Below, one piece after another: positions 1,386 through 7,037 of a stretch of 7,037 bases of DNA. Under the pieces are notes generated by a model. The model had not been told where the DNA came from and made no database searches. It saw nothing but the letters and a program-made list of their open reading frames with translations. The stretch covers positions 1-7,037 of IMG/VR virus record IMGVR_UViG_3300045988_000192, one strand, 5' to 3'. Positions within the stretch are counted from its first letter, which is position 1. The number at the start of each line of letters is the position of its first letter. The DNA is from a virus. The position numbers and the translations under genes were made by a program.

Positions 1386-2843
1386 ATGTTATCTAATATT
1401 ATTATTCGGAGTACTGCCGCTTTTGGCGGTACTCCTTTTCGTTTAAATAAGTGTACTGCTCTCGGTTCTGCTGGTACTGGTGCCGCTGCTGGTGCTGCTG
1501 CTGGTGGTGTTCCTGGTGCTCTTGTAGGTGGTGCTTTAGGTATCGCTAGTTCGTTAGTTGGTGGTTTGTTCGGTAAACACAATACTGATAAAACTAATGC
1601 GATGAACTATAAAATTATGCAAGAGCAGAATAAATTCAATGCTGCAGAAGCCCAAAAACTTAGAGATTGGCAAGAAATGATGTATCGTATGTTTGGCACA
1701 TCTTCAGCTAAAGCCAATGATATGCGTGCCGCAGGTCTTAATGCTCTTCTTGGTGACGTTTCTGCAAGTGGTAATGTCGGTAGTGGTGCTTCTGCTTCTG
1801 CTGCGGAATCCGCTCAGATGATGCCTACTGATTATTCCTTTGTTGGTGACGCTGCTCAGCGTGGTTTGGCTGCTTACAATACTACTCGCTCTGTTGACGC
1901 TTCTGTTTCTCTCCAAAAGTCTCAAGAGAATGTGAATAAGTCTATTGAGGGTGTCAATATGGCTCAGAAAGGTTTTATGGAATCTCAAACCGATATGCAA
2001 AAAATGACTTATAAATTTGCCATGGATACTTACCAGAATAGACTGTTGCAAGAACAATTTAAGGCCGAATTGGCTAATTGGCAAGGATTTGATGCTATGT
2101 ATGATGCACGGTTAAAGGCTTTTAGTCTTTATAACGTCATGCCACAGGAAGTCGAAAAGAATGTTGCTCAAACAATGTCTTTCTATGCATCTGCCTTTCG
2201 TGATATCGCTGACGGTAAATATACGCTCAAGCAAACAGAGAATTATGGCAAGTGGTTATCTATTCAGCAGACTTTTGCACATGCTGCTACTGTTCAAGGT
2301 CAAGCCGCTTTAATGCAAGGTCGTGCAGCTCTTACTAATGCTAGCACAAATGCGAGTTACCTTAAACAGTTAGGCGGATATTATGGCTCTTTGACTTCGG
2401 GACAAAATATGTCAAATGATATGCAACGTTATTATACCGATTTCATGCTCGGTAAAATGCCTATTGGTAAAGCCGAAAATATTCTTCGTCAGACACCTTA
2501 CAAACATTTACTTGATTTGAACATCCAACAAAATGAGTGGTCTTTAAATAAGTTGATGCAAGAGCCCGATTTGATACGTTCCCTTAGTGGTATGTACAAA
2601 TCAGAGACTTCTCTTACTAATAAGCGTGTTGATAGTTATGATACCGATAAAATCTTTGAGCGTGGCGAATCTGTTTCCCGTATGGTTAAAAATATCTCTG
2701 ATGGTATTAGTAACTTTACGCCTAAACCTAGATTTAACAAAGGTTCTTCTTCGGGTGCAAAAACGACACCGCCACCGAGTGGTAAATCTTGGCTCGATGC
2801 TTATCGTGAAAACCCTAATTATAATCCTACAGGTTATATATAA
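1386..2843 (+). CDS. VP2 / H-like minor capsid (DNA pilot) protein, 485 aa.
   Basis: First in-frame ATG after an upstream TAA. The N-terminal Gly/Ala-rich hydrophobic segment (GSAGTGAAAGAAAGGVPGALVGGALGIASSLVGGLFG) is followed by long Q/N/A-rich predicted helical regions. That is the hallmark architecture of microvirus pilot proteins. It sits directly after VP1 and a small ORF, as in gokushovirus- and Alpavirinae-type genomes. Confidence 0.75.
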   Translation: MLSNIIIRSTAAFGGTPFRLNKCTALGSAGTGAAAGAAAGGVPGALVGGALGIASSLVGGLFGKHNTDKTNAMNYKIMQEQNKFNAAEAQKLRDWQEMMYRMFGTSSAKANDMRAAGLNALLGDVSASGNVGSGASASAAESAQMMPTDYSFVGDAAQRGLAAYNTTRSVDASVSLQKSQENVNKSIEGVNMAQKGFMESQTDMQKMTYKFAMDTYQNRLLQEQFKAELANWQGFDAMYDARLKAFSLYNVMPQEVEKNVAQTMSFYASAFRDIADGKYTLKQTENYGKWLSIQQTFAHAATVQGQAALMQGRAALTNASTNASYLKQLGGYYGSLTSGQNMSNDMQRYYTDFMLGKMPIGKAENILRQTPYKHLLDLNIQQNEWSLNKLMQEPDLIRSLSGMYKSETSLTNKRVDSYDTDKIFERGESVSRMVKNISDGISNFTPKPRFNKGSSSGAKTTPPPSGKSWLDAYRENPNYNPTGYI

Positions 2844-2849
2844 TAATTT

Positions 2850-2885
2850 GGGCGCAAAGGTTAAATCCTCTGCGCCCTTTTTATT
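2850..2885 (+). terminator. Rho-independent terminator downstream of VP2.
   Basis: Stem GGGCGCAAAGG (2850-2860), loop TTAAAT, stem CCTCTGCGCCC (2867-2877) with one mismatch in 11 bp, followed by TTTTTATT. It is GC-rich in an otherwise AT-rich genome and lies 7 nt after the VP2 stop. Confidence 0.7.
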
Positions 2886-2946
2886 CTTATGAAATAATAA
2901 AAATTTATATTATACTCTTAATGTATCTGTTTTGTATTTGTGTTCG

Positions 2947-2982
2947 TGCGCATTTTATACGTACGTACACAATTTAATTAAA
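2947..2982. promoter_or_regulatory. Cluster of short perfect palindromes in the AT-rich intergenic DNA: TGCGCA (2947-2952), TACGTACGTA (2958-2967), TTTAATTAAA (2973-2982).
   Basis: Read directly. Three palindromes lie within 36 bp, downstream of the terminator. Candidate protein-binding or promoter-proximal sites; function unknown. Confidence 0.3.
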
Positions 2983-3115
2983 CAGATACCTTATTTTGGT
3001 TTGTCTGCTAGAAAACCTTAGCTTTGCGCGGAAAAGTTATAACATGCTACTAACTACCTTTTTATGAAAATTTTCTTTGAAAATTCCTACTCTCTTGTTT
3101 GAGGTAGGCAAAAGT

Positions 3116-3131
3116 GGGAATACATATTCCC
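3116..3131. promoter_or_regulatory. 16-bp near-perfect palindrome GGGAATAcaTATTCCC. Candidate operator for a dimeric DNA-binding protein.
   Basis: The 7-bp arms GGGAATA / TATTCCC are exact reverse complements separated by 2 nt. An adjacent imperfect palindrome CCTAC(N13)GTAGG lies at 3088-3110. Confidence 0.4.
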
Positions 3132-3157
3132 TAGTTACTGCACTTTTGTTCCTCTTG

Positions 3158-3187
3158 TCTGAGCGCAACATAATAGACGCTATGACA
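3158..3187 (+). repeat. 30-bp direct repeat, copy 1 (tctgagcgcaacataatagacgCtatgaca).
   Basis: 29/30 identical to 3344-3373. A degenerate similarity extends about 10 nt on each side. Confidence 0.85.
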
Positions 3188-3214
3188 ATACTTATGAAAA
3201 ACACTAGCCTTTTG

Positions 3215-3330
3215 GTTCTTTTGGGCAATGCCAAAAGAACACCCTCGGTAGAGCCCGCGGAGCGTAAACGCGCTCGGTTCCGCGCGCTAGGCGGAACTCA
3301 GGTTATAGGGCTGAAAGCCCTAATCGCCAG
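3215..3330 (+). other. GC-rich cluster of four consecutive stem-loops between the two direct repeats. Candidate ssDNA complementary-strand origin (ssi) or small structured RNA.
   Basis: Hairpin 1: gttcttttgg (3215-3224) pairs with ccaaaagaac (3231-3240). Hairpin 2: gagcg-taaacg-cgctc. Hairpin 3: gttccgc-gcgctag-gcggaac. Hairpin 4: tagggc-tgaaa-gcccta. Local GC is about 60% against about 38% genome-wide. No protein-coding potential is convincing here; the only open frame, the 87-aa track ORF 3077..3340, runs straight through the hairpins and repeats. Confidence 0.5.
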
Positions 3331-3343
3331 TTATCGTTAGTTC

Positions 3344-3373
3344 TCTGAGCGCAACATAATAGACGTTATGACA
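3344..3373 (+). repeat. 30-bp direct repeat, copy 2 (tctgagcgcaacataatagacgTtatgaca). It also forms the left arm of a long imperfect palindrome.
   Basis: See copy 1. The period between copies is 186 nt. Confidence 0.85.
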
Positions 3374-3432
3374 TTAGAAAATTCTGCGTAGGCAAATTTT
3401 CCATGTCGTAACGTTTATTATGTTGTGCGTTC
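3347..3432. repeat. 86-nt imperfect palindrome. The left arm 3347-3374 pairs with the right arm 3403-3432, and the spacer itself contains gaaaatt (3377-3383) paired with aattttc (3395-3401). It would fold into a hairpin of about 38 bp with an 11-nt loop on single-stranded DNA.
   Basis: Left arm: gagcgca-acataatagacgttatgacat. Reverse complement of right arm: gaacgcacaacataataaacgttacgacat. There are 3 mismatches and 1 indel over about 30 positions. The right arm is an inverted third copy of the 30-bp repeat. Confidence 0.75.
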
Positions 3433-3574
3433 GGCGAAGCAGAAAAAGGACAATAATTTTGTCGTTTGAATTGCGGCGAAGGCGCTTTTCAAACGTCAAA
3501 ATTATGTTCTTTTTCACATTTTCGTTGGTCGAACACTCAAGCAAGTGAAGCGTGCGAAGCACGAAAAATATGCA

Positions 3575-3598
3575 AAGTCGGGTTACTTTCCCCGACTT
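3575..3598 (+). terminator. Stem-loop aagtcggg-ttactttc-cccgactt followed by a pyrimidine-rich tract. A weak terminator or attenuator candidate about 80 nt upstream of the small membrane protein gene.
   Basis: 8-bp perfect stem and 8-nt loop. The downstream ctccttcctcttg is U/C-rich but not a clean U-run. Confidence 0.3.
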
Positions 3599-3677
3599 CT
3601 CCTTCCTCTTGTAATTATTTTCTTAAATAGTGTTAACAAATTTGGTGCTTTCAAGTTTTTTATTTTATCTTTGCACC

Positions 3678-3896
3678 ATGAAAAAGGATATTATCAAAAT
3701 TATCATCAAAGTTGCATTGTATGCACTTGGTTTGATAGCTGCTTATTTTGGTGTCTCAACCATGACATCATGCAGTACGTCCCACAATGTAGATGCCAGT
3801 GGTCGCACTACTATTGTTACAGTTGATACCACAATTGTTAAACATAACGGCATTGTCCGTTCTAAAAATTTTAAGCCTTATGGTGAAATTGAATAG
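3678..3896 (+). CDS. Small secreted or membrane-anchored protein, 72 aa. It has an N-terminal signal peptide and a possible lipoprotein (SPII) cleavage site MTS|C at Cys32, followed by a Thr/Val-rich 40-aa extracytoplasmic tail.
   Basis: ATG at 3678 is preferred over the track's GTG at 3630. The n-region MKKDIIKIIIK is followed by the hydrophobic core VALYALGLIAAYFGVSTM, then CSTSHNVD. The frame is open to TAG 3894-3896. A TAtcTTTG motif (Bacteroidetes -7-box-like) lies at 3666-3673, but only about 5 nt before the ATG. Confidence 0.55.
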   Translation: MKKDIIKIIIKVALYALGLIAAYFGVSTMTSCSTSHNVDASGRTTIVTVDTTIVKHNGIVRSKNFKPYGEIE

Positions 3897-3923: not shown

Positions 3924-4030
3924 TGTTCAGTATCTTGTTAAGTATGGTCACTTAGATGAGTTTGTTGCTTTGTTTATGCCTAGTGTTGTTCATATCTTGA
4001 ATATGACAACTGCGCCTGTTTCTTGGGTGC

Positions 4031-4279
4031 ATGAATATCAGTGGTACAAACGTGTTTAGTTTTTTGCGTATGACAGCTAAAGATTATTTGACTGCTCTCA
4101 AAGTTATTAGAGAGATTCAGCGGAAGCAGGCATATTGTAGTGGTCAATCTAAACCCTATCTTGCTGAAACGTTGAAAGAGATTGAAATGTATTGTCCCTT
4201 GGATTTTTCCAAAAGTGGCGGTCGTGTTACTGAAAAGGTTATTTTAAGTTGTTATAACGGTAATTTATTTAGTACATAA
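4031..4279 (+). CDS. Small hypothetical protein, 82 aa (or 69 aa from the alternative ATG at 4070), immediately upstream of rep.
   Basis: Open frame ending at TAA 4277-4279, only 2 nt before the rep ATG (taaTTatg), which suggests translational coupling. Predicted helical, with mixed charge and four Cys. Same strand and similar codon usage as rep. Confidence 0.45.
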   Translation: MNISGTNVFSFLRMTAKDYLTALKVIREIQRKQAYCSGQSKPYLAETLKEIEMYCPLDFSKSGGRVTEKVILSCYNGNLFST

Positions 4280-4281
4280 TT

Positions 4282-5835
4282 ATGGCTTTATTCCCTCGGT
4301 GTAATAATCCTGTTCCTGTTGTTGGTCGACATGGTGTTACTCTTGTTGGCTGCCATTCGTGCATTCAATGTCGTGTTGCTGCTCAGGAATATCTTTGCAA
4401 GCTACTCGAGGTTGAAGCTTCTAAACATAAATATGTTGAATTCATCACAAACACTTATGATGATAAACACCTCCCTTATATAGATACTTCTTACCTATAT
4501 CCTTTTGGATATGCTTTGCGCATTCCTAATCGGGTAATTAAAAAATATAATCGTAGGACTAAAGAATTTTATTATGTAGAGGATAAAATTTCTAAGTCTT
4601 TTCGGCTTACCGATTTTGGGACTATTGACACAGCTTCTATGCTTCGTGATTACTATGCACGTATTGACAAATATTATAGTAGATTTCCGTTTCGGTCACG
4701 GGGCATACGTAATAATTCAGTTATCCCCATACTTTGGTATGATGATATTAGAAAATATATAGGTCGTTTAAGAAAATGGTTTTTAAAAGAATATGGTGAA
4801 AAAATACGCTACTACATTATTTGCGAGTACGGAACACAATCATTCCGTCCGCATTATCATATCCTACTATTCCACGATTCGCCTAGAGCGAGAGCGGATT
4901 TTAGGACTGTTCGGTCTTTGCCAATGTCCACAAGAGACAATCCGAGAGAAGTTTGTATTAAACTCGATTTGGCTCAATTATGGCTCTATGGTGATACGAC
5001 TACAAAGGTTACCGATGGAAATATGCAAGAATACGTGTCTAAGTATCTTACACAACATTCTGATTTCCCTCGAGTGCTTGACAAGTTTCCACAAAGGAGT
5101 TTTCACTCAATCTTATTGGGTTCAAAGAGCAAATCAGAGGTTAAAGAACTTTTTACCTCTAGAGACTTCGAAGCACTTACAACAGATTATGTTGTTAACA
5201 AAAAAGGTATCAGACGCCTTATTTCCATGTCAGATGCGTATTACTCTCAACTGTCCGTCAGATTTACAGGCTCTTCCTTTTTTGATGTTAACGCAACTTC
5301 TTCCTTATTTCGTTCGGTGGTATTCTGCGCCCGTCGATTCTTCTGCTCATCTGGAGAAATCTATGATGACGCAAGTGTAAGGGAGTTTTTGTTGTGGTTA
5401 CTTAACCCCGATACTTCTGCGTTATATAAACATATTTATCAGTTCCGTGCTGTCTATAGGTATGTAGAGGAATTTGCGAAGCTTATTTATAACAGTTCCG
5501 GTTCTGTAAACCCTTTAAAATCACTGCTTTATGCTGCACACCATCACTATTCGTTATCCTCCTGTTTAGGTTTGGATTCGTACACATGTTTAAAGTTACG
5601 TTTTGATTTCATTGCGTGGAAGGACTATCAAAATCTGGTTCAGTATTTCCAAGCTTTGGAAGATGATAAACTCTTTGCGTATGAAAATTATGCAAGTATG
5701 TCGCCTTTTACTGGTACTTATGATTTTAATATTTTAAAAACTCGCTCTATTTTTCAGTATCAAGTTCAACAGGCAAATATGTCTTATACTGAGAATATTA
5801 AACATAGGGCTATTGTAGATTCTTATAAAAATTAA
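4282..5835 (+). CDS. Replication initiation protein VP4 (phiX174 gene A-like HUH rolling-circle endonuclease), 517 aa.
   Basis: The N-terminal Cys-rich segment GCHSCIQCR resembles the conserved VP4 zinc-finger-like motif. Motif I-like EFITNTY. Motif II HUH: PHYHILLFH (nt 4847-4873). Motif III with two catalytic tyrosines EYVSKYLTQ (nt 5028-5054), compare phiX174 gpA YVAKYV. The stop TAA 5833-5835 lies 5 nt before the VP1 ATG. Confidence 0.92.
   Translation: MALFPRCNNPVPVVGRHGVTLVGCHSCIQCRVAAQEYLCKLLEVEASKHKYVEFITNTYDDKHLPYIDTSYLYPFGYALRIPNRVIKKYNRRTKEFYYVEDKISKSFRLTDFGTIDTASMLRDYYARIDKYYSRFPFRSRGIRNNSVIPILWYDDIRKYIGRLRKWFLKEYGEKIRYYIICEYGTQSFRPHYHILLFHDSPRARADFRTVRSLPMSTRDNPREVCIKLDLAQLWLYGDTTTKVTDGNMQEYVSKYLTQHSDFPRVLDKFPQRSFHSILLGSKSKSEVKELFTSRDFEALTTDYVVNKKGIRRLISMSDAYYSQLSVRFTGSSFFDVNATSSLFRSVVFCARRFFCSSGEIYDDASVREFLLWLLNPDTSALYKHIYQFRAVYRYVEEFAKLIYNSSGSVNPLKSLLYAAHHHYSLSSCLGLDSYTCLKLRFDFIAWKDYQNLVQYFQALEDDKLFAYENYASMSPFTGTYDFNILKTRSIFQYQVQQANMSYTENIKHRAIVDSYKN
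4793..5380 (+). CDS. Possible overprinted gene inside rep, in an alternative frame, 195 aa. Speculative.
   Basis: An uninterrupted 195-codon frame in AT-rich DNA, entirely within rep. Microviridae have precedent for overprinted genes (phiX174 B and K inside A; E inside D). There is no independent evidence of expression. Confidence 0.15.
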   Translation: MVKKYATTLFASTEHNHSVRIIISYYSTIRLERERILGLFGLCQCPQETIREKFVLNSIWLNYGSMVIRLQRLPMEICKNTCLSILHNILISLECLTSFHKGVFTQSYWVQRANQRLKNFLPLETSKHLQQIMLLTKKVSDALFPCQMRITLNCPSDLQALPFLMLTQLLPYFVRWYSAPVDSSAHLEKSMMTQV

Positions 5836-5840
5836 TTATT

Positions 5841-7037
5841 ATGGCTAATAAAGTTTTAGGTATGCATCGCCTTAAGAATAAGGTTAATCGCAATGCTTTT
5901 GATTTGTCTCATCGGCACATGTTTACCGCTCAAGTCGGTGAATTGCTGCCTGTATTTACTCAGTGGGTTAATCCTAATGAAACGTTTAAGATTGGATATA
6001 ACGGTAAAACTCGTACCGCTGCCCTTAACACTGATGCGTTTACTCGTATACGTGAAAATATCCAGTATTATTTCGTACCTTTTCAATCGCTTTGGAAGTA
6101 TTTTGAGCAACAGGTGAATAATATGACTAAGGGTGATGCTGGTCAGAATATTTCTAAGTTTGCAGATAGTTCGACAGAAGCTTCCAAGATTTCTACTTCT
6201 CTTCCCTATATTTCTTATGTTGATTTGGGGGATTGGCTTCATGTAATGTATCAACAATCTCTTGATGCTCTTGATGCTTATATGAAGAAGTATGAAAATC
6301 CCTCGGCTCGTTCTGCTGTAGATTTTAAAACATTTTGTGACCGTTCAAATGTATATTCGGATATTTTTGTTTGTGATGGTTACCGCCTTTGTCGTGCGGC
6401 TAAACTTCTTATGGCTTTAGGTTATGGCAATTTTTCGGTTATCATTCAGTTTGATATTTATTCTATGGCTGAACGTTTTGTTGCTGCTGGTAATCCTTGG
6501 GACGTTTCTGAATTTCAGGACTCTAGTTATGCTTTGGATTTTTCTTCATTTGAAACTCCTACTATTGTTAACAGTCCTAATTTGTCTATTTTGCCTTTAC
6601 TGGCTTATCATAAGATTTGTAATGACCATTACCGCAATGAAAAGTGGCAACCTTTCGAACCTTGGACTTGTAATATTGATTATTTGAGCCCTACGGATAA
6701 TATGAACGCAAAAACTTTTATCCAGTCTTCTACGTTTAATTCTGCTATGACTTCCTTAATTGATTTGGAGAATTCTAATTTACCTATTGATTATTTCACT
6801 TCTGTGTTGCCTCGTGCGCAATATGGTGACGAGTCTGCAGCTATGGTTGATATTCAGAGTCCTTCTAAACTGCTCTTTGATAATTCGGGTTCTACTCCTA
6901 AATCGGGTGCTCTTTTCGATGGTCCTTCTTTTGGTCCGAATGATACACTTATTAGGAGTAGCACTAATTTAACGCAGTCTGATACTGGTTACATTTCTTC
7001 TATTCAATCTACCGTTCAAAGCGAAAAACTTGCTGGT
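5841..7037 (+). CDS. Major capsid protein VP1 (phiX174 F-like), 5' portion. The gene has no stop inside the window and continues around the circular junction into 2..910.
   Basis: ATG at 5841 is the first in-frame start; the codon before the run is TAA at 5826-5828. The N-terminus MANKVLGMHRLKNKVNRNAFDLSHRHMFTAQVGELLPV is the typical Microviridae VP1 start. The frame stays open to 7037. The 6983-7037 = 1-55 identity puts the reading frame in register with the track's ORF 68..910, giving about 2052 nt (683 aa). Missing from the ORF track only because no stop falls inside the window. Confidence 0.9.
   Translation, partial: MANKVLGMHRLKNKVNRNAFDLSHRHMFTAQVGELLPVFTQWVNPNETFKIGYNGKTRTAALNTDAFTRIRENIQYYFVPFQSLWKYFEQQVNNMTKGDAGQNISKFADSSTEASKISTSLPYISYVDLGDWLHVMYQQSLDALDAYMKKYENPSARSAVDFKTFCDRSNVYSDIFVCDGYRLCRAAKLLMALGYGNFSVIIQFDIYSMAERFVAAGNPWDVSEFQDSSYALDFSSFETPTIVNSPNLSILPLLAYHKICNDHYRNEKWQPFEPWTCNIDYLSPTDNMNAKTFIQSSTFNSAMTSLIDLENSNLPIDYFTSVLPRAQYGDESAAMVDIQSPSKLLFDNSGSTPKSGALFDGPSFGPNDTLIRSSTNLTQSDTGYISSIQSTVQSEKLAG

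Follow-up and report, generated by a model that had tools for sequence, protein, structure and literature searches.

To our knowledge, the signals that start the complementary strand and the viral-strand origin are essentially unknown for microviruses outside the phiX174/G4 group. The ssoA, ssoU and ssoT elements of rolling-circle plasmids, the minus-strand origin of M13/f1, and the single-stranded Frpo/ssi promoters of conjugative plasmids are long imperfect hairpins that function as folded ssDNA in one orientation only. Such elements are dispensable in some hosts and are swapped between replicons as cassettes. A review locates DNA mini-hairpins of the GCGNAGC type where primase acts in the complementary-strand origins of G4, St-1, and alpha3, as well as in RSF1010 ssiA, and reports far lower stability for their RNA counterparts (PMC13037366). 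Microvirus intergenic hairpins with compensatory changes have been proposed as negative-strand origins, and those of the reekeekee- and roodoodoo-microviruses were tentatively assigned to negative-strand initiation (PMC9865509). Recombination of rolling-circle ssDNA viruses has a hot spot at the v-ori, and template switching induced by secondary structure at 5-10-nt repeats leads to duplications (PMC3187698). Bacteroidetes microviruses are thought to integrate via dif-like sites, to which a second site in inverted orientation is sometimes added (PMC3091885), and a gokushovirus has been shown to integrate in a Xer-dependent manner (PMC7062461).

The locus described here belongs to a gut microvirus of the Alpavirinae type, whose host is probably a member of the Bacteroidales. 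The window, which is the whole 7,037-nt stretch analyzed, consists of a circular 6982-nt genome and a 55-nt terminal overlap. A 30-mer occurs three times in one of its non-coding regions. The account that we consider likely is that these copies are the two arms of a hairpin and a stray copy of one arm, all carried by a structured cassette that was acquired horizontally. The locus provides an alignable candidate signal, a covarying 135-nt module with C-GNA-G hairpins that is absent from Rfam. It is also a natural gain-of-cassette experiment, with one genome carrying the cassette and 36 close relatives lacking it at the same site.

Repeats, insert and donor lineage

The features of the locus, in window coordinates and all on the + strand, are as follows.

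3085-3148, +: resident conserved element CTCTTGTT-N9-GCAAAAGTG-hairpin-TAGTTACTGCACTTTTG, common to the window and donor lineages
3149-3158, +: left junction repeat TTCCTCTTGT, the recipient side of the insertion site (comparison with relatives)
3158-3187, +: copy 1 of the 30-mer, TCTGAGCGCAACATAATAGACGCTATGACA (29/30 against copy 2)
3186-3612, +: acquired non-coding cassette, homologous to the donor lineage (identity to L100, L099, L105, and L110)
3344-3373, +: copy 2 of the 30-mer, ending ...GACGTTATGACA, the 5' arm of a long hairpin (sequence match and fold)
3404-3430, +: inverted copy, the 3' arm of the same hairpin (22/27 against the reverse complement of copy 2)
3603-3612, +: right junction repeat TTCCTCTTGT (comparison with donors)
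3641-3673, +: Bacteroidetes-type promoter, with TTTG at 3641-3644, 21 nt, and TATCTTTG at 3666-3673 (Bacteroides promoter consensus TTTG / TAnnTTTG)

An earlier sequence-only reading had reported two direct repeats and an inverted third copy, in non-coding DNA and in a number unlikely by chance. All of this was confirmed. The start-to-start offset of copies 1 and 2 is 186 nt, and with its flanks the direct repeat covers 36 nt (33/36 identical, 3155-3190 against 3341-3376). The repeat search placed the arms of the inverted repeat at 3349-3383 and 3394-3428. The longest exact direct repeat genome-wide is 22 nt, whereas 200 shuffles averaged 12.5 nt and never exceeded 15, so the repeat is far beyond chance. 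G+C is 51% in the 156 nt separating the direct copies, compared with 38% genome-wide, with 58% seen in 100-nt windows. The repeat region is non-coding. A small protein of 48 aa from the ORF at 3194-3340, which has a conserved ATG, was considered and rejected: the homologues read the conserved nucleotide motifs in all three frames, and the ORF from this ATG varies from 15 to 100 aa among them.

All three copies lie in an insert of 454 nt (3159-3612; copy 1 starts at 3158) bounded by the two copies of TTCCTCTTGT. The insert is absent from all 36 window-lineage relatives with a readable site, in which TTCCTCTGT, TTCCTTGT, or TTCCCCCTGT is followed directly by AACTATT; PV067919 and MG945894 are also without it. 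The anchor-to-anchor distance is 122-126 nt in these 36 relatives (once 216 nt) and 579 nt in the window. Their Rep proteins are 82-95% identical to that of the window, and a covariance model of the module (below) found 0 matches in 42 window-lineage loci. No 30-mer was found at the empty sites of the 36 relatives, where the earlier reading would have expected a single repeat. That reading had proposed a duplication and the insertion of a GC-rich element of 155 nt. Both the duplication and the arrival of foreign DNA hold up; the size and the boundaries do not, since the inserted piece is the full 454 nt. Since 36 relatives lack it, the cassette is not essential to the window lineage.

The insertion site lies directly 3' of the resident element at 3085-3148, and the left junction repeat adjoins the conserved stem-loop that ends at 3148. 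The stem of this element covaries from GTG/CAC to GCG/CGC inside the window lineage, and the element is a candidate viral-strand origin. Candidate Rep nick-site sequences are CTCTCTTGTTTGAGG (3089-3103), TTCCTCTTGTCTG, and TTCCTCTTGTAAT. The motif CTCTTGT is present inside both copies of TTCCTCTTGT, and the same motif opens the origin-like element in both lineages.

Positions 3186-3612 match a distantly related temperate microvirus lineage at 423 of 427 positions in L100 and at 421-422 of 427 in L099, L105, and L110. The proteins of these donors are much less similar to those of the window, with about 26% amino acid identity for Rep and about 42% for the capsid protein (MCP), so the non-coding DNA was transferred horizontally. 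The window phage appears, from these comparisons, to have gained the cassette recently from the distant lineage. It is a clear case of non-coding DNA at about 99% identity having moved between phages with 26-42% identical proteins. The cassette differs at 4 or more positions from each sampled donor, and one of these differences completes a pair in the second hairpin, at its apex (3476 and 3483). In the donors, the counterpart of 3186-3612 is part of a non-coding control region. Conserved non-coding sequence extends upstream of 3186 there and was not transferred, and no promoter came along with the cassette. The right crossover falls inside 8-9 nt of identity to the donor TCCCTCTTGT, which opens the conserved CTCTTGTT...GCAAAAGTG element. 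The breakpoints point to this element as the likely origin motif.

In bacterial genomes, the sole match to the module pattern was a prophage in a MAG labelled Lachnospiraceae, and these genomes gave no sign of the module as a host gene. In the plasmid collection, the sole match was a mislabelled microvirus of 6.3 kb, deposited as a plasmid of Pseudomonas aeruginosa. There is no link to plasmid sso elements.

Folded elements and possible function

The cassette consists of the following folded elements, again on the + strand.

3194-3328, +: GC-rich module, a conserved multi-stem element of 135 nt (RNAalifold, covariance model R1)
3205-3210/3300-3305, +: closing helix of the module, with a conserved G.U pair
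3215-3224/3231-3240, +: module hairpin with the invariant loop GCAATG
within 3194-3328, +: two short variable stems of the module
3277-3283/3291-3297, +: module hairpin
3306-3312/3316-3322, +: module 3' hairpin
3349-3387 paired with 3392-3428, +: long hairpin, 36 bp, with conserved G.T wobbles (fold and covariation)
3434-3440, +: mini-hairpin GCGAAGC (C-GNA-G type), directly 3' of the long hairpin (variant GCGGAGC in L030 and L032)
3442-3515, +: second long hairpin of 31 bp, its apex (3477-3481) being C-GAA-G (fold and covariation)
3551-3563, +: mini-hairpin CGTGC-GAA-GCACG, which covaries with CTGGC-GAA-GCCAG (GTA loop in L020)
3575-3598, +: last hairpin, AAGTCGGG / CCCGACTT, which covaries with GCGAG/CTCGC

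At least 48 gut microvirus genomes, including the window, carry the module, and a search with covariance model R1 returned 45 matches, spread over 43 loci. The module was aligned by the covariance model; a whole-family MAFFT alignment misplaced the variable stems. In this alignment, 98.3% of the cells are paired and 18 of the 33 pairs show changes on both sides, which was equalled by 0 of 500 shuffles. The invariant single-stranded stretches are ATGAAAAACAC and CCCTAATCGCC. The loop sequence GGCAAT, which is invariant, could form a pseudoknot with a 3' ATYGCC. A scan of the whole window and of 3100-3660 against Rfam 15 at E <= 10 found no relevant family, with matches restricted to miRNA precursor models, hit as generic hairpins at no more than 27 bits, compared with gathering scores of at least 80. 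ARAGORN found no tRNA or tmRNA in the window.

Copy 2 pairs with the inverted copy, and together they make up the arms of a single conserved 36-bp hairpin. Its stem shows compensatory changes at many positions in 12 homologues, and MG945191 keeps the pairing with a different sequence. Throughout the hairpin half of the cassette, compensatory changes were seen in 28 of 84 pairs (12 sequences). The many G.T wobbles and few A.C mismatches indicate that the + strand is the one that folds, and the cassette has the orientation of the genes in all genomes examined. When the insert was folded as ssDNA, the z-score was -9.6. By these measures, the structure of the cassette is under selection. The apex of the second long hairpin varies among CGAAG, CGGAG, CGTAG, and CGCAG, and in the four C-GNA-G loops of the cassette N varies (A, G, T, or C), with the G, the A, and the closing C-G constant. 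Genome-wide, GCGNAGC has 4 matches, 3 of them inside the insert. Read on the minus strand, the hairpin at 3575-3598 resembles an intrinsic terminator.

As its most likely function, we tentatively suggest that the cassette is an ssDNA origin or priming signal, a reading that we hold to be possible but short of probable. The cassette would act as folded single-stranded DNA through the 135-nt module, the two long hairpins, and the several C-GNA-G mini-hairpins. This SSB-resistant fold would be recognized by the host primase or RNA polymerase, and recognition would start complementary-strand synthesis on the incoming genome, as at G4-type or sso-type origins. The cassette may also be an exchangeable module, like the sso cassettes among rolling-circle plasmids. 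Two properties of complementary-strand origins are found here: the DNA is non-coding and folds extensively in the packaged strand, and C-GNA-G / GCGNAGC mini-hairpins are present. Given that its relatives dispense with the cassette, either the window lineage has another complementary-strand signal or the cassette has a different role.

Another explanation is that RNA, either structured non-coding or cis-regulatory, is the active form of the cassette or at least of its 135-nt module. The transcript would come from read-through of the capsid operon or from an unrecognized promoter, and the long hairpin would be an RNA stem. Because the mRNA is of the same sense as the packaged strand, DNA and RNA folding cannot be told apart by covariation, and the fold is on the mRNA-sense strand. 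The multi-branch fold of the module has strong covariation and conserved G.U pairs, its 3' hairpin loops GAAA and GCAA are GNRA-like, and its RNA fold is stabler than shuffles (z = -2.7). On the other hand, no Rfam family was matched even at E <= 10, and the cassette stands after the post-VP2 terminator (about 2850-2884) and before the promoter at 3641-3673, which precedes an ORF with its ATG at 3678. The transfer brought in no promoter. No Bacteroidetes-type promoter was seen by eye ahead of the module, and a sigma-70 scan was uninformative (4 sites compared with 2.9 expected). Also, the four C-GNA-G triloops, whose middle base is free to vary, represent a motif of DNA stability that is weak in RNA. 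We regard an RNA role as somewhat unlikely. It would change only the acting molecule and leave the identity of the three repeats as it is.

A bolder and improbable possibility is that the cassette is a self-contained mobile replication accessory. It would represent an undescribed class of folded ssDNA (or RNA) with the 135-nt module as its core, and Rep-mediated strand transfer at CTCTTG|T would spread it among unrelated microviruses. If this were true, the cassette could, for example, provide efficient complementary-strand priming in a new host. The window would then be a fresh transfer that still shows its junction scars, namely copy 1 and the two TTCCTCTTGT repeats, and the DNA from one CTCTTGT motif to the other might be releasable as a 454-nt ssDNA circle.

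Origin of the insert and of copy 1

Copy 1 repeats 30 nt of the long hairpin's left arm, and its position coincides exactly with the left junction of the insert. It is fused to the front of the acquired cassette and is present in the window alone among the 48 module-bearing genomes, which identifies it as a partial duplication associated with the junction. The 22-mer across the junction of copy 1 and the module was not found in IMG/VR or the JGI metagenomes. The arm variant of the window was not found in IMG/VR but was found in a metagenome scan. Copies 1 and 2 have in common the donor-specific variant TATGACA. The possibility that copy 1 was templated by the complement of the 3' arm was rejected, with 5-6 differences from the reverse complement of that arm compared with 1 from copy 2. 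The sole substitution between copies 1 and 2 breaks a pair in copy 1. Pairing of the inverted arm with copy 1 is less favorable than with copy 2, by 22 kcal/mol under DNA parameters and by 26 under RNA parameters. Copy 1, known from one genome, is therefore predicted to be probably functionless and inert.

We infer that the cassette was captured by template switching or illegitimate recombination, which would have produced the insert. The joints show microhomology, with CA/ACA at 3185-3187, T(G/C)TCTGAG on the left, and CCTCTTGT on the right. On the right, the breakpoint falls at the candidate (+) origin motif of the donor, as in other rolling-circle ssDNA viruses. A plausible setting is a lysogen of the donor prophage superinfected by the ancestor of the window. 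Copy 1 could have arisen in a single event with multiple switches. Alternatively, a 186-nt tandem duplication could have been trimmed later by the left breakpoint.

A different explanation for the junctions is that the insert entered as a discrete mobile element, such as a Rep-mobilized ssDNA segment or minicircle, at the nick-site-like CTCTTG|T and left the TTCCTCTTGT pair as duplicated or hybrid target sites. HUH Rep proteins are able to cut and rejoin such sites. The insert is flanked by identical 10-nt direct repeats that both contain CTCTTGT, and the right breakpoint is exactly at this motif of the donor. However, the flanking 10-nt repeat is equally explained by microhomology with the donor TCCCTCTTGT. 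The donor cassette is not bounded, as the homology there has no element-like boundaries, and terminal inverted repeats are absent. A second such insertion was found neither in the 42 window-lineage loci nor elsewhere, and the left end, a rearranged internal fragment, suits an accident of copying better than a precise excision. A variant of this explanation, already raised by the sequence-only reading, takes the 30-mers as a target-site duplication around the module; it fails since 47 other genomes carry the module without flanking 30-mers. Overall, we judge entry as a discrete element to be quite improbable.

Still less probable is that the insert or copy 1 is an artefact, either a chimeric assembly or a multiple-displacement amplification chimera of two co-occurring microviruses. 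The arrangement is known from one contig. Template switching in vitro, too, typically leaves joints with microhomology and hairpin arms that were copied again. Against this, the homologies at the joints are 2-10 nt, which is far below an assembler k-mer (the terminal overlap is 55 nt), and the insert landed cleanly between two conserved elements without damaging either. The 4 or more differences from each sampled donor, including the one that completes a base pair, and the one-base difference between copies 1 and 2, which is unexpected from an in-vitro duplication, also argue against an artefact.

The suggestion that the 30-mers are XerC/XerD (dif-like) sites, with copy 2 and the inverted copy as a CTX-phi-like attP hairpin and copy 1 as an extra site (the sequence-only reading had also raised an extra Xer half site), is largely refuted. 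It draws on CATAA-N6-TTAT in copy 2, an inner palindrome typical of Xer sites, and on a match by eye of about 16/26 positions between copy 2 and the true att of related prophages. The prophages examined were L075, L020, and L085 (host flanks) and L099, L100, L105, and L110 (short flanks). These prophages of cassette phages have another dif-like site, TTACCATAATACCGGTTA(T/G)AA(T/A), at their borders. It lies about 390 nt downstream of the 30-mer hairpin, which they contain in intact form. Since donor-type prophages end at a different dif-like site, the 30-mer is not an att site. The att 20-mer of the donors had no match in the window with up to 3 mismatches. The CATAA-N6-TTAT core occurs in copy 2 only, in the window and its closest donors; the TTAT half is absent from copy 1 (CTAT) and from most homologues (TTGCG, TTACG, TCACG). 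Distant homologues conserve the pairing and not the sequence, the hairpin has no unpaired central region, and two direct Xer sites would delete the module.

Finally, iterons or operators for the phage Rep or another sequence-specific DNA-binding protein, as also suggested earlier from three copies of a 27-30-mer in non-coding DNA near a candidate origin motif, are scarcely tenable, since relatives with 82-95% identical Rep have no copies, the donors (Rep about 26% identical) have just the two hairpin arms, one direct and one inverted, the arms covary to preserve pairing, and the spacings of 186 and 57 nt in mixed orientation are not array-like. The preferred account, of hairpin arms and a stray arm copy, carries a warning: in ssDNA phages, intergenic repeats should not be named iterons or att sites until it has been checked whether they are arms of hairpins or scars of recombination.

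Comparison with known systems

The closest parallels in microviruses are the primase-dependent (ssi) complementary-strand origins of G4, St-1, and alpha3 and the primosome assembly hairpin of phiX174, each of which is likewise an intergenic cluster of stable hairpins in the packaged strand. Mini-hairpins of the GCG(N)NAGC type are common to the cassette and the G4-type origins (PMC13037366), and both vary between related phages as a module. The cassette differs in its length of about 430 nt, compared with about 140, in having no sequence similarity to these origins, in its 135-nt multi-branch element, which is not known from G4, and in its host, which is probably one of the Bacteroidales. Compared with the sso-type origins, the cassette has no identifiable RSB or CS-6-like motifs and no -35/-10 mimic.

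The intergenic hairpins of the reekeekee- and roodoodoo-microviruses likewise show compensatory substitutions and conserved loops (PMC9865509). They belong to other clades, have other sequences, and are single hairpins of 13-64 nt with no horizontal transfer reported, whereas the cassette here spans 430 nt. The forked attP(+) hairpin of CTX-phi and the dif-like att sites of Bacteroidetes microvirus prophages (PMC3091885) and enterogokushoviruses (PMC7062461) are similar in that an inverted pair of about 28 nt folds in an ssDNA phage. In contrast to CTX-phi attP(+), the hairpin of the cassette is fully paired with no central bubble, and its Xer-like core is not conserved.

For the transfer itself, the nearest parallels are recombinants of geminiviruses, circoviruses, and parvoviruses, in which one breakpoint is likewise at the v-ori (PMC3187698); here it is at the candidate motif. 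The other joints here, with 2-10-nt microhomology by strong hairpins and a local duplication, likewise resemble the structure-induced template switches at short repeats in those recombinants. In contrast to those recombinants, the piece transferred here is purely non-coding and passed between phages with about 26% Rep identity.

The non-coding region and its insertion

Bases 1-55 of the window recur at 6983-7037, giving a circular genome of 6982 nt. The large genes all lie on the + strand. The genome belongs to the Microviridae, and its closest GenBank records are faecal Microviridae with 83-85% nucleotide identity. The repeats sit in a non-coding stretch of about 790 nt, which runs from the VP2 terminator (about 2850-2884) to the promoter before an ORF at 3678.

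Main features of the window
1386-2843, + strand: pilot protein VP2
3159-3612, 454 nt: insert, between identical TTCCTCTTGT decamers at 3149-3158 and 3603-3612
3194-3328, about 135 nt: GC-rich module, a conserved folded element
3641-3673: Bacteroidetes-type promoter (TTTG at 3641-3644, 21 nt, TATCTTTG at 3666-3673), 4 nt upstream of the ATG at 3678
4282-5835, + strand: replication initiator (Rep)
Spanning the circular junction, + strand: major capsid protein

The promoter was called by the Bacteroidetes-type consensus. Its conservation in all relatives (3641-3680) supports a Bacteroidales host. The ORF starting at 3678 is small and lipoprotein-like (MKKDIIKIIIK...).

Compared to its two closest GenBank relatives, the window carries extra DNA between ...GCACTTTTGTTCCT and GTAA(C/T)TATT.... 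Forty more relatives were fetched through the Rep protein (82-95% amino-acid identity). Two conserved anchors lie 122-126 nt apart (once 216 nt) in 36/36 relatives with a readable site; in the window they are 579 nt apart. None of 42 window-lineage loci was matched by a covariance model of the GC-rich module, so the insertion is derived and has so far been found in this genome alone. Since 36 relatives do without the cassette, the donor-homologous part of the insert (3186-3612), it is not essential to the window lineage.

Otherwise unrelated Microviridae in GenBank share pieces of the insert, and a further 47 module-bearing genomes came from pattern scans of IMG/VR, metagenomes and one genome collection. 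The metagenomic contigs L099, L100, L105 and L110 (the donors) are identical to window 3186-3612 at 421-423 of 427 positions, and their proteins are far from those of the window (Rep about 26% and capsid about 42% identical, VP2 barely alignable). Non-coding DNA has thus moved horizontally between distantly related microviruses. The donor cassette is embedded in a longer conserved non-coding region, of which the portion upstream of 3186 was not transferred. At the right junction, the donors read ...CTTCTCC TCCCTCTTGT followed by TCATTTATAGCAAAAGTGACAC and the window reads ...CTTCTCC TTCCTCTTGT followed by AATTATT, which places the right crossover within 8-9 identical bases. The cassette is caught here shortly after transfer.

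The window cassette has four differences from L100, the nearest donor, and two of them (3476 and 3483) fall in the second hairpin's apex. There, GCGACGAAGGAGC becomes GCGGCGAAGGCGC, with A to C at 3483 adding a G-C pair under a C-GAA-G loop. These apex changes suggest that the structure is still under selection, either after transfer or in an unsampled donor.

The stretch just past the VP2 terminator (window 2885-2930) is a length hot spot in the window lineage, ranging from 79 to 687 nt, with 95 nt in the window. The matching stretch of one relative, L015 (PV067919, 4023-4460), holds an 85-aa minus-strand ORF (4024-4281), which is unusual in a microvirus and absent from the window. At window 2919-2993, a long hairpin (TAATGTATCTGTTT ... 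AAACAGATACCTTA) encloses an alternating GTGCGCATTTTATACGTACGTACAC. It is conserved above the level of coding DNA in the window lineage, and a similar GCGCGTGTGCGATTTAACGTACGCGCGC hairpin lies upstream of the cassette in the donor lineage.

Folded structures of the cassette

The sequence-only reading had described two direct copies and one inverted copy of a 30-mer, and this observation holds: copies 1 (3158-3187) and 2 (3344-3373) match at 29/30 positions and are 186 nt apart, with an inverted copy at 3404-3430. The longest exact direct repeat is 22 nt, compared to at most 15 nt in 200 shuffles. The 156 nt between the direct copies are GC-rich, as had been noted (51% G+C vs 38% in the genome). 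Copy 2, the inverted copy and the short loop region between them fold into one 36-bp hairpin (3349-3387 with 3392-3428), and the same hairpin is present in related elements of other microviruses. When 12 related elements were aligned, double-sided changes with pairing kept were seen at many stem positions. Several conserved G.T wobble positions and few A.C mismatches indicate that the + strand is the folding strand. The most distant homologue, MG945191, retains the hairpin despite largely different arm sequences. Because it forms this hairpin with copy 2 and the pairing is conserved, the inverted copy is the partner strand of copy 2 and not a third site.

The fold of the GC-rich module consists of a closing helix, a 10-bp hairpin whose loop is invariant, two short stems that vary, another hairpin of 7 bp with a 7-nt loop, and a hairpin at the 3' end, with ATGAAAAACAC and CCCTAATCGCC as invariant single-stranded stretches. 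In an alignment of 45 matches that was built on the model, and so is fitted to it, pairing holds in 98.3% of cells and double changes are seen in 18/33 pairs; no shuffle or slid control comes close. The module has no Rfam match and is not coding sequence.

Module variants were also seen. L027 (7386-7517) lacks about 22 nt, corresponding to the short stems after the first hairpin, and L011 (MT135455, 1-142 and 6363-6441) has a different first hairpin. In MT135455, the module's first ~65 nt occur a second time, as a direct repeat immediately upstream of the full copy, across the record start. L114 (NZ_CP050055.1, 6313 nt) is deposited as an unnamed Pseudomonas aeruginosa plasmid but represents a whole microvirus genome, with a major capsid gene and, at about 4919, the module; the record is probably a contaminant or a mislabelled phage.

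The cassette is placed between a terminator and the next promoter, and it folds strongly as ssDNA on the packaged strand (z = -9.6). It contains four C-GNA-G loops, in which the middle base is free and the G, the A and the closing C-G pair are kept; 3/4 of the GCGNAGC matches in the genome fall within it. As DNA, such mini-hairpins have exceptional stability, which is far lower in their RNA form; they are found in RSF1010 ssiA and where primase acts in the complementary-strand origins of G4, St-1 and alpha3 (PMC13037366). For other microviruses, intergenic hairpins that show compensatory changes have been put forward as negative-strand origins (PMC9865509). Based on the fold, the placement, the loops and these precedents, we tentatively favor the view that the cassette acts as folded ssDNA to signal complementary-strand priming and can be exchanged in the way that plasmid sso cassettes are. 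A structured RNA is a serious, though less likely, rival, since the mRNA and the packaged strand have the same sense and the module looks RNA-like.

Read on the minus strand, the last cassette hairpin (3574-3599) has a T-rich tail after it and is scored as an intrinsic terminator. Its stem covaries among homologues (GTCGGG/CCCGAC vs GCGAG/CTCGC).

The cassette merits attention: it is a covarying and horizontally mobile non-coding element, found in gut microviruses, that had not been described.

Copy 1 and the breakpoints

A recognisable 30-mer was found in 25/48 module-bearing genomes, always ~130-155 nt downstream of the module start. Only the window, among these 48, has an upstream 30-mer, and the junction of copy 1 with the module was found in no contig when IMG/VR and JGI were searched. 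Both copies have the TATGACA variant specific to the L099/L100 donor group, so copy 1 derives from the cassette's own left arm and no other source. The single difference between them is a T-to-C change in copy 1, which loses one base pair with the inverted arm. Microhomology at the joints consists of 2-3 nt (CA/ACA) and T(G/C)TCTGAG. The simplest account is that copy 1 would be a copying accident during cassette capture. The polymerase may have stalled at the hairpin and then switched template, or a 186-nt tandem duplication may have had its first unit cut by the left breakpoint. With copy 2 blocked, the fold is less stable than the native hairpin by 22 kcal/mol under DNA parameters and by 26 kcal/mol under RNA parameters; given this predicted penalty, copy 1 is not expected to compete with copy 2 for pairing.

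Copy 1 had also been proposed to be an extra Xer (attP-like) half site. This idea was reasonable: dif-like sites flank the prophages of Bacteroidetes microviruses (PMC3091885), and a gokushovirus has been shown to integrate in an Xer-dependent way (PMC7062461). It was not borne out: the donor-lineage prophages are bounded by another site, with the hairpin intact inside. L075 is an integrated prophage with host flanks and TTACCATAATACCGGTTA(T/G)AAT boundaries at 241-269 and 6810-6838. The same pair of sites, including the variant form TTACCATAATACCGGTTA(T/G)AA(T/A), lies 6.3-6.6 kb apart in L020, L085, L099, L100, L105 and L110. In L075 and these six loci, the 30-mer hairpin is intact ~390 nt inside the right end. 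Two other loci, L018 and L103, have single copies of the TTACCATAATACCGGTTA(T/G)AA(T/A) site. Neither the window nor its lineage has the donor-type dif-like att site, and the CATAA-N6-TTAT core is present in copy 2 only.

The L075 flanks are bacterial: on the left is a gene's C-terminal end, and on the right an ATPase-like gene in which a GSNASGKTT P-loop motif was recognised by eye. This record (CAVBFV010000077.1) is binned as Lachnospiraceae. The bin assignment may be wrong, since the promoters of the phage and the flanking gene look Bacteroidetes-type (TTTG ... TAnnTTTG).

The sequence-only reading had itself named modules without flanking repeats as evidence against a target-site duplication around the GC-rich element, and that explanation is rejected because the module is present elsewhere without the upstream 30-mer. 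Iterons are dismissed as well: the repeats are absent from the cognate Rep lineage, the donors have the hairpin arms only, and it is the pairing that is conserved, not the sequence. The repeat is genuine, yet what it represents is a hairpin together with a recombination scar, neither an iteron array nor an att site.

The motif at the donor right breakpoint is the start of an element, CTCTTGTT-N9-GCAAAAGTG-hairpin-TAGTTAC(T/G)GCACTTTTG.

Copies of the origin-like element
3085-3148 (also delimited as 3092-3148): window copy; the stem covaries from GTG/CAC to GCG/CGC
Donor loci: immediately downstream of the cassette, e.g. L075 6672-6760

The element is common to two lineages with Rep only ~26% identical. 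Since it is among the few non-coding sequences seen in both, we take it as the candidate viral-strand origin. It resembles the phiX174 origin (CAACTTG|ATA...). The non-coding region contains three copies of CTCTTGT, at 3092, 3152 and 3606. Recombinants of rolling-circle ssDNA viruses have a breakpoint at the origin and others at short repeats beside strong hairpins (PMC3187698). The window insert is like these recombinants, with one breakpoint at the candidate origin and others at short repeats near strong hairpins.
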